This document shows positions 8,530-46,738 of a DNA stretch of 64,000 bases, piece by piece; the stretch's first letter is position 1, and each line of letters starts with the position of its first letter. A program made the position numbers and the translations under genes. A model generated the notes under the pieces. That model searched no databases and was not told where the DNA came from. It worked only from the letters and a program-made list of their open reading frames with translations. The stretch is from Cirrosporium novae-zelandiae. Its lineage: Eukaryota. Where the stretch lies: NCBI GenBank assembly GCA_026023565.1, contig JAPETS010000016.1, positions 310,001 through 374,000 of the forward strand. The letters are read 5' to 3'.

Positions 8530-10218
8530 TCAAACCTTCTCCCCGTCATCTGCGGTCTTCCCCTCAAGCCACTCTCCAAACTTTTCCAACCGCTCATCCT
8601 CCTTCTCATCGTCGCCTCCATGGTTATCACCCGATTTCCGGAACCTTTGCGGGCCGTCAGCAGTATAAGCTTCGACCTTTGTGCCAGAGAAGAATCTTCC
8701 ATCCATCAAGGTCACGCATGCCTTTGCAGACTCGGAATTCGAGAACCGGACGCTAGCGATGCCTTCATGCTCTTTATCAAAGATGACAACGTTGGTGACA
8801 TCCCCGAGCTTGGAGCATTCGTCACGGATATCTTCTTCGATATCGAGAATAGCGTTGGGGTCTTCCTTTATGGGCCGTTAGAAGAGACAATGATGAATGG
8901 GAGAGAAATTTAGAGAAGAGAATGTTGGGGGTGATGCTCAGAGTTCGAGATTCTCAACAGGGTATATTGTTTCAGACAGGGATAACTGAAATTATAATAT
9001 AGCTCATCATTGCAAAAGGGTTATGTTCACAAAGGATCAAAGAAAGGTGATATTATGGAGAGAAGGGGTATGAAGACGTACTTCAAGTTCCTGCAGGGTG
9101 AACATGTGCTTAAGTATCACGACCTTATCCCATCGGGAGCTTGTTTCCTGAAGAGTTGATGGATCGTCATCGTCCCAATCGGCTAGTTTACTAGATCATA
9201 TTATTAGCAACCATATCCCTTTACCTAGATTAATTTAGGGTCTCACTGGTTCAGTTTTTGGGTCCTTTTGATGATTTTCTTCTTGTCCCTAACATTAGGT
9301 TTTGCGGGAGCTTCTTGCTGCTTTTTATAACTTGAATCTGCCATCTGTACTTTCATCTTCCCGGCTGGCCCCTGTACTCCTAGCCGAAAGTCGGAGTCAT
9401 CCAACATCTGTATGGCAAGATCCACGCTTTCAGGCCTAAAATATACGATAAGAGCATCTCCTTTGAATTTGCCAGCCTCATCTTTGTACATTTTTATGCG
9501 GGGTTTGGAGCTGTCAATTTCTTCAGCGATGACACCACATTTCGAGAATACGTAGTGCACTTCATCCTCGTCGGCATCAAGGGGAATGGATGTTACATAG
9601 ATGGCGGTCTTTTTGCGTTCATGGGGTTGGTTGGGGCCTTTCGTTTTCTTGTGTTTAGATGTACCATTGTGCTATATAATTCATGAGTAAATGAAATGAA
9701 ATAGATCATAATTAAGAGTCAAGGTGTTGGCAACTGGCACTTACAGTATCGTCTTCCTGCTCATTCTTTCGCTTTTTCGCCGGTTTTACGGGTTCATTTT
9801 CGTCCACGCCCTTTACAGCATATGCTTCTCTTTGCTTTTCCAAAAGCGCATCGTCCAACTGCAATCCTCGAAAAACACAAGCAACGCGATTAGAATTTGC
9901 CCGGACCGACCAGCAGGAGAATTACATATGTAGCAACAATGCAAATATGCTTGTAAATCTTACAAAACTTCACATTGAATACCTCTTGAGGAAGGAAGAT
10001 GGTAGGCGGCGTATGAAGGGCTGAGGGCATACCACTGGGACCCATCTCCTCAAAGCGTCATCGAATTCGTATTCTTGTCCATCTTCTGTCTCAAGGATGA
10101 ATTTATTCGAGATCTTAGAGAAGGAGATACGATGGTCGGCGTCGAATTCCTCGGGGTTTTTCGGTAAAGAGGAAAGGGAGCTTTCGGGATATGGTAGGGG
10201 GGAAATGTTTTCTTCCAT
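8530..10218 (-). CDS. CUS2: U2 snRNP-associated RRM/UHM protein Cus2/Tat-SF1 (HTATSF1), multi-exon
   Basis: RRM with IYVTSIP, FSKCGVI, KMYKDEAGKFKGDALIVYFRPESVDLA. UHM exons contain VILKHMF and MDGRFFSG. Confidence 0.88.
8934..9015 (-). ncRNA. snR38: Intronic box C/D snoRNA, snR38-like (25S rRNA 2'-O-methylation guide)
   Basis: On the minus strand: C box ATGATGA (9010-9004), guide CAGTTATCCCTGT then D' CTGA (8975-8972), D box CTGA (8941-8938) and a short TGC/GCA terminal stem. The guide is complementary to the conserved LSU rRNA sequence ACAGGGAUAACUG. It lies inside the 216-nt CUS2 intron 8866-9081. Confidence 0.85.
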
Positions 10219-18659: not shown

Positions 18660-20475
18660 TTATTCCTTTACTACCACATCCATATCCACATCCCTTTTCG
18701 TATTATCCTCCTCGGCTTTCTCAACCTTCCTCCGTTTATATCTTCCCCTCGCCTCGACCTTCCCCTCTGCTGGTACAACCCTCCTTGCACAAAACATATA
18801 CCCATCCGCCCCGCCCCGATCACTCATTACAGGGTGCGTCCGTCCCGGAAGAGCCTGCCATCGCTGTACCCTCGCTGTATGGATCGTTGGCGCAAGCAAC
18901 AGCGTCGGATTGACAGGCCACTCCTCGCTGGGAACTGTAGGCGGAGTCTGAGAATCGGATTCAAGCTGGAAGGCGGCACGGCGGGCCGTGGAATATAGGT
19001 CGGCGAGGTGGGTGAGGGGTTCGATTGTCGGGGAGTATACAACAATGTGAGCGGCACCGGCGAGGAGGGGCACACAATGTTGGAGGATGGAGACGGGAGA
19101 CATGAATGCAGAGATGATTAGACCGTCGAACCCGCCGGCGCGAGTCTCGTCTACTACGTTCTTGATTCGGGTCCAGCGGCGACGTTTTCGGAAGTAGGAG
19201 CTTCGTTTTCCGGTTTTCCAGGTCTTGAGTACGTCGTCGGGGATGAGGGCTGGTTCTGCATAACCGGAGTCCGACCCAGGGTGTAGGAGTTGGAGCCAGG
19301 AGAGGGTTTTGAGGTGAGTGTAGAGCGGGTGCGTGTGGGAGGGTTCGTTAGCGTCGAAATGGAAGTAGCGGAGCAGAGAGAGGTTGGGTTGAGCAGCGGA
19401 GTGGAGGAGAGTGAGGGTGTTGGTGGGAGAGCCCATTGCGAGAGGATGGTTATGTTTCTTGGGATGTGCACGCGCTGTCATTGTAGGAGAAGGGGGATTT
19501 GCTGTTGGTGGCGGGTTAGGACATTCCGAGTCGGAATCCGAGGTCTTGTCGTGTGGATATAAAATGCCCATTCGTTCTGCCATTGCTGCTATAAGGAGTC
19601 CACCAGTTTCGTCTACTACGAGCCATCTACCACCACCGATTTTGCCAACTCCATCCTCCGTGGTCGGAAACGTGCGATTGGCACCTCCGTAATGTATATT
19701 CGCCCAGCTTCCTACCAGTGCCATCAGCTCCTCTCTCATCTCCATTATTTTCATCGGCTCTTTATCACTCAACATCCAGTTCGTCAGGGTCGGGACATCC
19801 AGCGGGAGCACCGTAAATCTCTTCAGATACTTCTTCGCTTTCCGTAGGGTATATTTCGCCAGAGAAAAGGCAGTTTTCTGGTCGATTGCTGAATGAGATG
19901 CAAGGACTTTGGAAATGATATCTTTTCCTGAAGTGCCATCTTTTTTTAGGGCTTCGATATCCTCCATTGTCAGCTTTTGCCGACTCGGATCATCAATTGT
20001 ATGTTGATTTGTTCGCATGACAACTTTGCCATCGTTTTCAACAAGCTCATATTCTGGAGTTCCATCCACGCTTTCATTCTTTGGCTCATCCACAAGTTCT
20101 AGGGGGGGCGTCGAAGCTTCTTCGTCAATGAGATCGGTGAGAGCTTCAGCGTTCAGCTCTGAGGCTGGGACGATGCGTAAACTGGGGACATTCGGGGGAT
20201 CTTGTTTTTCAACTATCTCAAAGGTGATATTGTAAGGGCGACCTAATATCTGGTTTACCTGGAAGATTCCATATTTTCCAAGGGAGATTGTTCTGTGTAG
20301 TAGCTTGTTAGTGAGTGAGCTAGAACTGCAACAGGGAATGAGGTGTAAGTGGTGTCAAATGCTCACAAAAGAACCAATTTACATACGTATTAGGCACAAC
20401 CTGTATGATTTTATGAAGCTCTGATGGTAGTAGCAATGCTACGTAATCATTGGGACGAATTGTTGAATGGATCAT
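18660..20475 (-). CDS. TRM6: tRNA m1A58 methyltransferase non-catalytic subunit Trm6/Gcd10, 2 exons
   Basis: Exon 1 MIHSTIRPNDYVAL and exon 2 ISLGKYGIFQVNQILGRPYNITFEI. Also QKLTMEDIEALK, KTAFSLAKY, VVDETGGLL and WQALPGRTHPVM. Confidence 0.9.
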
Positions 20476-20655
20476 AGCTGCGCATAACTTCTAAGCAATT
20501 AATTTAATTTCTGGAGCTCAAAGTTGGAGGGAAATAATATCCTTGGCCTTGGATAAGAGATAAACTTCAAACCTTCTTATCAAGAAGCCCTAATCTTTCA
20601 CCCATACACAGTACATACACAGTCCACATCAATCGCTAAGGATTTTCAACCCCAT

Positions 20656-20861
20656 AGTTGGCTGGTCTAATGGTTATGATATCTCGTTCACAGCAGTGTG
20701 AGCTCCACAATACCGAGAAGGTTCCGAGGTTCGCATTCAATCACCATTATTGGCATATATAAAATTTCAATTAACATCAGCTAGTTCGATCCTCGTAAGT
20801 GGTTCCTGGGCTTCAACCATTCCTTCACAGATGTATTAACTAAGACATTAGGAGCTGACTA
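20656..20861 (+). tRNA. tRNA-Val(CAC) with one canonical 37/38 intron (20693-20712) and two GT-AG introns in the T-arm (20729-20784, 20795-20851)
   Basis: Joined exons give AGTTGGCTGGTCTAATGGTTATGATATCTCGTTCACA-CCGAGAAGGTTCCGAG-TTCGATCCTC-GAGCTGACTA (73 nt). Acceptor stem AGTTGGC/GCTGACT, Val-type D arm, anticodon stem TCTCG/CGAGA, T-loop TTCGATC, discriminator A. Confidence 0.85.
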
Positions 20862-20870
20862 TATCAATGA

Positions 20871-20876
20871 TTTTTT
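20871..20876 (+). terminator. Pol III oligo-dT terminator of the split tRNA-Val gene
   Basis: T6 run starting 10 nt after the discriminator base. There is no run of 4 or more T within 20656-20861. Confidence 0.7.
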
Positions 20877-21360
20877 GACCATTCTATTAATACTACCACT
20901 TCAAAAACACGCCCGTACTTGAAAGGTGAATGTATGAACGTATGAATGACAACGCTAGATGGGAATGAATAAAAAATATCAGCATTCCCTTAAGCTAGTC
21001 TTTAGGGTCTAAATAGTAATTATGGTTGATATAGTTTATTAGCCTTATGGAGCCAACCCCCTGACCCCACAGGACAAAGTATTATCAGATGGTTTTATAT
21101 AAGTTGTATAAAACAAAGGGTACAACTATGCAAGAGTACTCCTGCCTTTCCGACAACCTTTGAAATTGGAAATGATATTGGTTCCTAGACTTTGGGACTG
21201 CAGAGTGGACACCGGCTTCTTTGGTTTCATGAATATATCATTCATCGCTCCTTCGCCAGCAAATATATCGTCTAACGCAGGGATGGTCACTGAGCAAGGC
21301 CTCCTTTTTCAACTTGCTGTCTTCTATTGAACACATATATACGCTGCCTTACACATTTCC

Positions 21361-22302
21361 TTACAGAGATTTGCCCATGAACTTTCTCTTTGTGAAACTA
21401 AGCCACCACTGTGTAGTTTCAAGTCAGCATATGTTCGAAGTAGTTTGAAGTTCGAGTGGTACCTTTGATGGCGTGTTTGTTCCGTCGGCATAAATTCTTG
21501 CTAATAGTCGTTGAGCAAGTTCTTGTCGAACTTGGGAGATGTATCTAAGACGCACACCACTTTATTAGAATATACCCTGGAAGTGAATGAAAGAGAGTTA
21601 GGAGTAAAAGCCCAGGACTAATAACTCACTGTCGTAGCGTCTCGGCGTCTTGTCTATTACTGGGAGTTTCGAATGCCTGGTTCAGCGGGAACGATGCATC
21701 ACCGGGAATAGCAAATTGATCGAGGGCAGTATTCGTTAAGACCTATACCGGAATAACCAAAAAATCTTAGTAACTGTGCCTTTTATCCTCTCCTTCGAAT
21801 TTGTCTTTTAGAAAATAGCATAATAATGCAAGCCCAGACAAACCTTCTCAGCCTCTCTAGTCCCCATTCCCTTATTCAGCTTTCCCAAACATTCGCTCAC
21901 GAACAAGATCCCATAGATCAACAATCGATCAGCTGGTCCCTTAATCTCAAAGTTTCGAAAAAAGGTATTTGCGCGGAAGAGGGAAATGACTTCATCGAGC
22001 GGATCGTAGGATTCGGAGGAGGGGTCTACATCAAGGTCGGAGGTTCCAGCAGGGAGAGGAGGGAGGGTGTACGCAGGACCACGAGTACGAGTACGCAATG
22101 GAAGGAGGGCGAAATTCCCTAGTAACAAAACGATCAAAACTATTCCTACAAAGGAGGACAGGACAAAAGACTATACCTATCACTCGAACTTCGGGATCAT
22201 CGAGGAAAACAGAGTGATAAGCCTAAGAAGTGAGGGAAGTCAGTTTCTTAGCAACCAAGTAGACATGTATACTGTGGGGGAAAGTTATATACTCACCGGC
22301 AT
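21361..22302 (-). CDS. ARC18: Arp2/3 complex p21 subunit (ARPC3), many small exons
   Basis: MP|AYHSVF start, GNFALLPLRTRTRGPA, LFRANTFFRNFEIKGPADRLLIYG, FAIPGDASFPLN and WWLSFTKRKFMGKSL. Confidence 0.93.
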
Positions 22303-45467: not shown

Positions 45468-46738
45468 TTACTCCTCAATCCACTTAACACACTCCCACTT
45501 TCCCTTAAGATCCTCCTTCCATAAGCTGACCTTATTGTCGCCCCCACTAACAGCCAAAACGTTCCCACTCAGACTCCAGCTGACGCGCCAGAGCACGGCG
45601 TCGAAGGTCAGGATCGTGCTCTTCCATTCCGTGGGGTTCGACGGGTCCGAGGTCCAGATTCGGACGGTTTTATCTTGGGAGGCGGAGGCGATGTAGTATC
45701 GGGAGAGGATGGTGGGGGACCAGGAGACGTCGCGGACCCAGTCTGTGTGGCCTTTGAGGGTGATTGTTGTTTGGTAGGTGTTTAGTTCGGGGCTGGGGTG
45801 GTAGAAGAGGAGGTTATTAGCTTTTCTATGGTTCAAATGGGATTTCATGACCCCATTCCCATATGATTCTAATGTATTTGTTCGTGCATGAGATTCACAC
45901 ATACTTGTAGTCCCAGATCTTAACTAAATTGTCACTTCCTCCGGTAACGAATCTTCTGACTTGCCCAACTCCGGGGCTTGGACTGACGAGACTTCCTGGT
46001 GCAATTGCAGGTGCCCAGCTCACCGCATTGACTCCAATTGCGTGTGCCGGGTATAGCTGATGCTCCCAGCTGTTATCCTTGAATTCGAGGATGGACACCC
46101 TGCCGTCCGAGGAGGCGCAAGCCAGTAAGCAGCCGAGTTCATGCGGTGACCAGCAAACGATGTTCACGGAGGCGGTATGAAGGGTAAAGGTGAAGACGAT
46201 TTGCCACTGTGAGTTTGTTTCTCGCCAAATGATTACTTTTCCGTCGTATGAGGAGGATGCTAGGATAGTGCCGTATTTAGGATGCGCCTTGGAGTAGCTA
46301 TTAGTTTTTTTTATTTTTTATTTTATTTTTAGGTTGACCGAAAAGGATTGTGACGAACCCATGATACACACCAGACAGCGCCTTCATGACTGTTATATTG
46401 AGATCAGTATTATGCCCAATCGGGGAAGCAATGCTTCAGACGAACCCTCGTAGCGTTTCTGTTAGACGATGTGTGTCCCCTTCTATTTCAAATATTTTAA
46501 TTGTTTTATCTGCAGAGCAAGTGGCAAGCCGTCGACCATAATAGTCCAAGACGGCATCATGCTGGTGGACGCAAACATGTTAGTTTTGTCATTTATATAG
46601 CTCTTCTGATGTTCCATCGTATGGTTTAGGTACGCACAATCATATCATCATGACCGGAGTTGGAGATAACTTGCGTCTGTAAGGGCCTGTAAGTAAGCAT
46701 GCATATATTTTGGGTACGAGCAAATTGGGACTCACCAT
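45468..46738 (-). CDS. SEC13: COPII/nuclear pore WD40 protein Sec13, multi-exon
   Basis: [57 protein letters not shown] and [21 protein letters not shown]. The first coding exon is only the ATG. Confidence 0.95.

Follow-up and report, generated by a model that had tools for sequence, protein, structure and literature searches.

A predicted tRNA-Val(CAC) gene of Cirrosporium novae-zelandiae whose T arm is split by two spliceosomal-type inserts

Introduction

In the textbook view, spliceosomal introns belong to transcripts of RNA polymerase II (Pol II), while the introns of transfer RNA (tRNA) genes are removed by an endonuclease; a 2025 paper, in its passages on intron classes, likewise describes these classes as unrelated and assigns spliceosomal introns to Pol II transcripts (PMC12530127). 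Spliceosomal introns are also documented in genes for non-coding RNAs. According to the sections of a 2018 review of the small nuclear RNA (snRNA) U6 that deal with them, they occur in U6 itself, a transcript of RNA polymerase III (Pol III), where the B block lies inside the intron in Schizosaccharomyces pombe, and also in the U1, U2 and U5 snRNA genes and in the ribosomal RNA (rRNA) genes of ascomycetes (PMC5855946). The list of non-coding RNA genes with spliceosomal introns given in that review names U6, U1, U2, U5 and rRNA, and tRNA is absent from this list (PMC5855946). Disrupted tRNA genes are known from Cyanidioschyzon merolae, for which their numbers are given in the corresponding part of another paper (PMC3978253). 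Here we analyze positions 20656-20876 of a 64,000-nucleotide (nt) stretch of contig JAPETS010000016.1 of Cirrosporium novae-zelandiae (this whole stretch of 64 kb is hereafter called the window), where a predicted nuclear tRNA-Val(CAC) gene is split by two inserts of the spliceosomal type in addition to a canonical tRNA intron.

The locus had been noticed in a reading of the letters made without database searches (hereafter the sequence-only reading), which proposed that the tRNA needs both the spliceosome and the tRNA splicing endonuclease SEN to mature and stated that no such gene was known to have been described. Every coordinate and sequence feature that it listed for 20656-20876 is present. 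The structural part of its interpretation, i.e., a Val(CAC) gene with intron-like inserts that lack a bulge-helix-bulge motif, stands, while the part on maturation is read from the sequence and is treated below as a proposal. Its statement on novelty agrees with the full-text literature that we searched, in which subscription journals are thinly covered and no published spliceosomal intron in a tRNA gene was found.

Anatomy of the gene and restoration of the tRNA by excision

All parts of the gene lie on the plus strand. The first tRNA part as a whole (E1, 20656-20728) holds the 20-nt anticodon-loop intron and is thereby divided in two. The exon at 20656..20692, delimited by ARAGORN on the product spliced in silico, corresponds to tRNA positions 1-37 and comprises the acceptor 5' strand AGTTGGC, the D arm with the A-box-like TGGTCTAATGG (A box, 20663-20673), the anticodon stem 5' strand and the anticodon CAC in the loop TTCACA; its positions 8-37 are identical to those of a metagenomic relative, L034. 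It is followed by the canonical tRNA intron of the SEN-endonuclease type (20693..20712; i(38,20) in the notation of ARAGORN), which is 20 nt long, sits at 37/38 and contains GTGTGA that pairs with TCACA of the anticodon loop, giving a 7-bp anticodon-intron helix in the fold. Positions 38-53 of the tRNA are found at 20713..20728: they close the anticodon stem with its 3' strand, continue with AGGTT as the variable loop and open the T stem with the 5' strand CCGAG.

At this point the tRNA breaks off. The first insert (20729..20784) is 56 nt long, lies between tRNA positions 53/54 and displays the donor GTTCGC, the branch motif ATTAAC at 20770-20775 and the acceptor TAG, so that it reads GTTCGC...ATTAAC...CTAG. 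A 10-nt micro-exon, TTCGATCCTC (20785..20794), then supplies tRNA positions 54-63, that is, the T loop TTCGATC and the three first bases of the T-stem 3' strand. The second insert (20795..20851), 57 nt long and located between tRNA positions 63/64, reads GTAAGT...ATTAAC...TTAG, with the donor GTAAGT, the branch motif ATTAAC at 20835-20840 and, again, the acceptor TAG. The last exon, GAGCTGACTA (20852..20861), provides positions 64-73: it completes the T stem with two bases and carries GCTGACT, the 3' strand of the acceptor stem, followed by the discriminator A. A T6 run at 20871..20876, 10 nt past the tRNA 3' end, is a likely Pol III terminator.

In its genomic form this gene is invisible to standard searches: ARAGORN calls no tRNA anywhere in the window, whether anticodon-loop introns are allowed or not, and Rfam reports no tRNA at the locus, neither at the gathering threshold nor at E <= 10. 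Removal of both inserts by script leads ARAGORN to call tRNA-Val(CAC) with a 20-nt intron at 37/38, and removal of the 20-nt intron as well leads to a call of about 73 nt. The call of Val(CAC) on the spliced form and its absence on the genomic form had both been expected in the sequence-only reading, and so had the rebuilt product itself, which has a 7-bp acceptor stem, discriminator A, a length of 73 nt and one C-A mismatch in the T stem (C49-A65).

The restoration is specific to these two cuts. As a control, every segment of 40-110 nt that starts with GT, has G at +5 and ends with AG was excised on both strands of the window, and ARAGORN was run on each product; in double excisions, the exon left between the two cut segments was 3-40 nt long. 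None of the 6,918 single excisions yields a tRNA call. Among the double excisions, exactly one of 22,874 does so, and it is the combined removal of 20729-20784 and 20795-20851. The intron-like character of the inserts was assessed separately, with an intron-like segment defined as one that starts with GT, has G at +5, ends with YAG and has, 8-30 nt before this end, the A of a YTRAY motif. Such segments account for 12 of 127,888 segments of 56 nt and 11 of 127,886 segments of 57 nt in the window, real introns counted in, which corresponds to a pass rate of about 9 in 100,000 for arbitrary segments of insert length; both inserts pass. The cut that restores the tRNA can slide, the first insert having three positions that are equivalent in this respect and the second having two; these pass rates then give, by arithmetic, a joint chance of about 5e-8 of finding intron-like segments at a tRNA-restoring cut in both places. 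Chance falls far short of explaining the pattern, and the anatomy of the gene and the intron-like nature of both inserts are seen directly in the sequence.

The tRNA family and the rebuilt product

Relatives of the gene were sampled by scanning metagenome data with a degenerate pattern for the 5' half of Val(CAC), which returned at least 120 loci, mostly archaeal. Among the loci listed, 114 were called as intact Val(CAC), one (L110) was called otherwise and five were without a call. Three of the uncalled loci (L012, L041 and L062) end at a contig edge, L036 is an archaeal gene with a T-loop intron and L116 breaks after the variable loop. Nine of the matches listed, a small sample of the family, are of fungal type (L024, L034, L068, L069, L093, L095, L100, L113 and L119), recognizable by flanks rich in A/T, by T runs as terminators and, in many cases, by a short intron in the anticodon loop. 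The closest among the matches listed are L034, L093 and L119, with 34, 33 and 30 identities in the first 37 positions, respectively; all three, like the gene in the window, begin with A1 and end with discriminator A. Anticodon-loop introns of 18, 16 and 13 nt are found at the same site in L034, L093 and L068, respectively.

The rebuilt product is a good member of this family. It agrees with L034, L093 and L119 at every base of positions 8-9, the D arm and loop, the anticodon loop and the T loop, and the T loop carried by the micro-exon is identical to that of L034, L093, L119 and L068. Position 26 and the anticodon stem are those of L034, the anticodon stem being shared also with L093, while the variable loop is that of L093 and L119 and the T-stem 5' strand that of L119, so that no difference separates the product from L119 over this continuous stretch. 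In the last exon, the acceptor strand GCTGACT pairs at 7/7 positions with 20656-20662, two G-U pairs included, and the acceptor pairs 6:67 and 7:66 differ from those of L119 on both strands. Because these pairs co-vary, the last exon is the true partner of the 5' end and no chance match. The 73-nt product folds as a cloverleaf with C49-A65 as the single mismatch, and apart from this mismatch and one lineage-specific wobble pair its tRNA features are intact. By these likenesses the gene can be assigned to a recognizable fungal family of nuclear tRNA-Val(CAC) genes. Its host is a filamentous ascomycete.

That the split gene is a chance resemblance or an assembly artefact deserves consideration, given that the source is a metagenome-assembled genome. 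We regard this as extremely improbable: a single double excision in 22,874 restores a tRNA, the micro-exon matches the family T loop exactly, the acceptor strands co-vary, and an assembly error would not make units of intron length with GT, branch site and AG twice.

Three other loci of the metagenome sample also show breaks or inserts of their own. L116 (1-338, reverse strand, GC 0.60) contains the first two thirds of a Val(CAC) gene that resembles the Val(CAC) genes in the tRNA arrays of L002 and L044 and breaks after the variable loop at ...GGTAGGT|GCTCTCC, with no T loop or acceptor 3' strand in the 290 nt beyond; it may be either truncated or the carrier of a long insert beginning with GT. 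In L110, an archaeal-type Val(CAC) gene that ARAGORN miscalls, the anticodon is followed by an insert of about 52 nt. In L014, also of archaeal type, position 41 is the site of a 9-nt intron.

Nature of the two inserts

For comparison, a local set of messenger RNA (mRNA) introns was assembled by joining open reading frames (ORFs) in the window with a few homology checks and no use of annotation. The candidates from ORF joining are mostly 47-112 nt long, with donors GTAAGT or GTAAGC, branch motifs CTAAC or CTGAC and YAG ends; donors with C at +6 are present among them, several being GTAAGC. The donor of the first insert, GTTCGC, is weak yet inside this local range. In SEC13 (minus strand), GTTCGT donors are located at 46445-46440 and 46358-46353 and are confirmed by protein continuity, and one of the SEC13 introns is 56 nt long with the donor GTTCGT, i.e., it has the length of the first insert and nearly the same donor. 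A CLF1 intron (minus strand) ends with ATTAACAGCTGCAG and has ATTAAC as its branch region, and the first intron of TRM6 (20386-20293, minus strand) reads GTATGT...CTAAC...CAG. The match of the two inserts to mRNA introns of the window in size and signals, for which the sequence-only reading had invoked the GTTCGT donors of SEC13 and the ATTAAC of CLF1, is thus borne out; the SEC13 and CLF1 coordinates it gave need correction as to strand, since both genes are on the minus strand and the positions refer to the reverse complement.

Within 46288-46445 (minus strand), GTTCGT, an unusual donor, is shared by two introns of SEC13 in succession, the second of which carries a long A-rich tract before its branch site.

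The two inserts share one layout: ATTAAC is followed by an AG 5-6 nt after the branch A and by the tRNA-restoring TAG at 10-12 nt. In the second insert the nearer AG (20843-20844) is 5 nt from the branch A and is probably too near for use; elsewhere in the window, splicing passes over an AG that comes right after the branch site, as in CTAACAG. As mRNA introns are, both inserts are unstructured, with fold energies of -2.1 and -6.6 kcal/mol that are no better than those of shuffles, and the fold energy of the precursor is ordinary overall (z = -1.2). By length, donor, branch motif and acceptor, their assignment as U2-type GT-AG spliceosomal introns is well supported.

The GT-AG ends could also be incidental, the inserts then being non-canonical tRNA introns that are cut by the tRNA endonuclease or by another non-spliceosomal route. 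Introns of the T arm that are removed via a bulge-helix-bulge are known, and the metagenome sample contains an archaeal example, L036 (reverse strand), with a T-loop intron of 14 nt. With the bulge-helix-bulge defined as two 3-nt bulges that bear the cut sites, a 4-bp helix between them and helices flanking them, L036 as the positive control scored 4/4 central pairs plus 3/3, whereas neither insert exceeded 3/4 central pairs, and the flanks were weak in both; among random site pairs, 8% reached 4/4 plus at least 2/3. Introns of this type were rejected for the two inserts, given scores below the control and the lack of structure. Moreover, a full set of spliceosomal signals in both inserts would occur by chance at only about 5e-8, and the fungal SEN complex measures from the mature tRNA domain, which is absent here until the T arm is rebuilt. 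We consider removal by an endonuclease or a similar route very improbable.

Other origins of the inserts were also considered. Local alignments of the inserts with each other and with E1 did not rise above those of shuffled sequences (p from 0.08 to 0.54), the two inserts being mutually unlike (p 0.54); an internal duplication is not supported by these tests, and the short direct repeats are taken as chance. Introner-type copies of the inserts were absent from the window, where the best BLAST match had an E value of 0.3 and matches were 11-15 nt long. Between 20425 and 21029 there is no plus-strand ORF of at least 50 amino acids (aa), which rules out that the inserts are introns of a protein gene.

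Maturation or decay of the split gene

Transcription of the gene may be by Pol III; the A box is intact. Because the AG that ends the first insert (20783-20784) repeats the AG of the exon, the B-box sequence of the family (20783-20794) stays intact in the DNA; it is displaced about 56 bp downstream, and the micro-exon is one of only three loose B-box matches in the 64 kb. At the normal position, the exon G and the start of the first insert together form a B-box-like sequence, GGTTCGCATTC, which agrees with the B-box consensus at 8/10 specified positions. The longest T run inside 20656-20861 is 3, but the absence of T4 is uninformative, as 40% of 206-nt stretches of the window are also without T4. 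In the relatives, terminators are T4-T7 runs that lie 0-9 nt past the 3' ends.

Our favored reading, to which we give slightly less than an even chance, is that spliceosome-dependent maturation of this tRNA-Val(CAC) really takes place, at least at some level. In the proposed pathway, the precursor would be transcribed either by Pol III, which would use the A box and the B box, both intact but the latter displaced, and stop at T6, or by Pol II, as a divergent transcript from the TRM6 promoter that carries the tRNA in sense. The nuclear spliceosome would then take out both inserts. RNase P, RNase Z and CCA addition, as well as export, would act after both inserts are gone, and the SEN endonuclease and tRNA ligase would remove the 20-nt anticodon intron last. 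RNase P, RNase Z, the CCA-adding enzyme and the export and SEN machineries recognize the mature tRNA domain. Since the T arm and the acceptor stem are absent until the inserts are gone, spliceosomal splicing must, in such a pathway, precede RNase P and RNase Z processing, CCA addition, export and SEN cleavage. In that case the locus would hold a functional tRNA gene dependent on two splicing machineries that are unrelated and act one after the other: the spliceosome would remove the T-arm introns, and SEN would follow with the anticodon-loop intron. We likewise put this prospect close to, but under, one half.

Several observations weigh against such a working gene. GTTCGC is a weak donor for the first insert, whose required acceptor has a possible competitor 4 nt upstream: splicing to this CAG, which ends at 20780, would leave the T loop 4 nt longer. 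The product has the C49-A65 mismatch, where L119 has G65, and two acceptor-stem G-U pairs, one of which is common to L119; its cloverleaf is the weakest of the six compared (-12.8 vs -14.2 to -20.9 kcal/mol). The A-box to B-box spacing is about 109 bp, in comparison with 30-90 bp as the normal range for tRNA genes according to the U6 review (PMC5855946). A split T arm occurs in none of the nine fungal-type relatives among the matches listed, and an exact-pattern scan of the metagenome data for the split form (the end of E1 plus GT, a gap of 30-60, AG plus the micro-exon) had 0 matches. In work on animal cells, Pol III transcripts were reportedly poor splicing substrates.

The main alternative is a young pseudogene, with many of these observations in its favor. 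According to this explanation, two pre-formed sequences of the intron type were inserted in a normal Val(CAC) gene, by reverse splicing and reverse transcription or by an introner-like mobile element, while other Val(CAC) copies do the work; the precursors would be left unmatured or be matured only in traces, and the locus would be starting to decay. C49-A65 and the wobble pair T4-G69 are GC-to-AT transitions relative to L034 and L119, as under neutral decay, and the low cloverleaf energy, the weak first donor with its nearby competing AG, the enlarged spacing of the boxes and the lack of split forms among the relatives and in the metagenome scan all fit. To these can be added that no precedent for spliced tRNA genes was found in the literature searched and that the interruption itself disables the gene if left unspliced. 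Against decay, all conserved tRNA positions but 65, both sets of splice signals and the terminator are intact, and therefore the disabling would have to be very recent. The mismatch itself has a parallel in L093, a relative that also tolerates one in its acceptor stem. Two independent insertions of the intron type 10 nt apart in a 73-bp gene would be a large coincidence without selection or a link to the spliceosome, and since the inserts resemble neither one another nor the rest of the 64 kb, nothing points to a mobile family, although the window is a small part of the genome. We rate a young pseudogene as a serious possibility, somewhat below an even chance and only slightly behind the favored reading.

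The favored reading of a tRNA that is matured with the help of the spliceosome draws on the restoration of a tRNA by these exact cuts alone, the splice signals and their likeness to local introns, the fit of the product to its family, the absence of a bulge-helix-bulge motif and of structure in the inserts, the intact B-box sequence with T6 behind the gene, and the precedents in snRNA and rRNA genes. Two insertions of the intron type 10 nt apart may be easier to explain if the transcript is a repeated substrate of the spliceosome. An arrival of the inserts by reverse splicing would imply that the spliceosome had accepted the transcript as a substrate, in which case splicing in the forward direction is equally possible.

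Genomic neighbours and host

ARC18 and TRM6 are separated by an 885-nt spacer, and within it lies the tRNA gene, whose strand is opposite to that of both neighbours. Tblastn with the N-termini of four TRM6 homologues identified MIHSTIRPNDYVALLLPSELHKIIQVVPNT (20387..20475, minus strand) as the true first exon of TRM6; its ATG (20475-20473) is 181 nt from the tRNA 5' end, and the two genes are divergent (head to head). The ARC18 stop codon is at 21361..21363 (minus strand). A bidirectional promoter region common to TRM6 and the tRNA is possible. The enzyme responsible for methylation of A58, a base within the 10-nt micro-exon, has TRM6 as one of its subunits; the adjacency of TRM6 and the split tRNA is probably coincidental. 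A tblastn search with ARC18 and TRM6 against 14 selected metagenome loci gave no match.

A public gene model, P0001 (732 aa, Pfam ARPC3 and Gcd10p; 20293-21363, minus strand), fuses ARC18 to TRM6 across the tRNA locus. It runs past the ARC18 stop codon (21363-21361) by taking an overlapping GT as a donor, and it omits the TRM6 exon 20475-20387. The evidence above indicates that ARC18 and TRM6 are two separate genes with the tRNA between them.

A public protein labelled Cirrosporium novae-zelandiae, itself from a metagenome-assembled genome, matches the TRM6 ORF (18660-20354, minus strand) with 100% identity, and the next TRM6 relatives, of Sarea, Pycnora, Lasallia, Xylona and others, are at about 60% identity. 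By this distance the host belongs to an isolated lineage of the Pezizomycotina; in the relevant part of a published classification the genus is placed in the Xylobotryomycetes (PMC6712537).

The sole Rfam family match in the window is a C/D-box small nucleolar RNA, snoR38, at 8931-9018 (minus strand), with 49.6 bits against a gathering threshold of 45.

Comparison with known systems

If the favored reading is true, spliceosomal introns would here be seen for the first time in a tRNA gene. They would hint at a hidden class of tRNA genes that is missed by every standard scanner, so that tRNA counts from scanners can be incomplete, and might perhaps be tied to the habit of some ascomycetes of having spliceosomal introns in their rRNA genes. 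A working gene would mean that a tRNA precursor can be a substrate of the spliceosome and that the steps of tRNA maturation can take their order from splicing of the mRNA type. A dead gene would still be a rare footprint of the spread of spliceosomal introns, with two insertions in a gene for a small, abundant RNA that is not made by Pol II, and would bear on the reverse-splicing model of intron gain.

In its tRNA features the gene is like the Val(CAC) genes L034, L093, L119 and L068, which have the same A1-U72 pair, D arm, anticodon, variable and T loops, discriminator A and T-run terminator, as well as an intron of 13 to 18 nt that pairs with the anticodon. Unlike the gene in the window, these four have an uninterrupted T arm and a paired 49-65. 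In its anatomy, the gene is like the tRNA genes with non-canonical bulge-helix-bulge introns of archaea, C. merolae and nucleomorphs (PMC3978253; PMC4033280), which have several introns, the T arm included, and are missed by standard scanners. The introns of those genes are defined by RNA structure and cut by the tRNA endonuclease, whereas the inserts in the window are without that structure and with spliceosomal signals.

The rRNA introns of ascomycetes (Bhattacharya et al., 2000, cited in PMC5855946) are also GT-AG introns in a gene that is not transcribed by Pol II; they too occur in Pezizomycotina, and several of them are found per structural RNA gene. Unlike the tRNA gene described here, the rRNA genes are transcribed by RNA polymerase I and have long exons.

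The closest likeness in working principle is to these rRNA introns and to the U6 introns of fungi, for example of S. pombe (Tani and Ohshima, 1989, 1991; Frendewey et al., 1990, cited in PMC5855946). As far as the review's sections on U6 describe them, U6 and the tRNA are both cases of a short GT-AG intron in a gene for a small non-coding RNA that has Pol III elements of the A-block and B-block kind, with the B block associated with the intron. In both, the RNA would work only after removal of the spliceosomal intron, which for the tRNA is a reading of its sequence. U6 sits in the catalytic center of the spliceosome, which explains the gain of U6 introns by reverse splicing, while the tRNA lies outside this center. 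Spliceosomal introns in non-coding RNA genes are thus already known, and what appears to be new is their occurrence in a tRNA gene. Also unlike U6, two such introns, a 10-nt micro-exon and a third intron of the endonuclease type are here combined in one gene.

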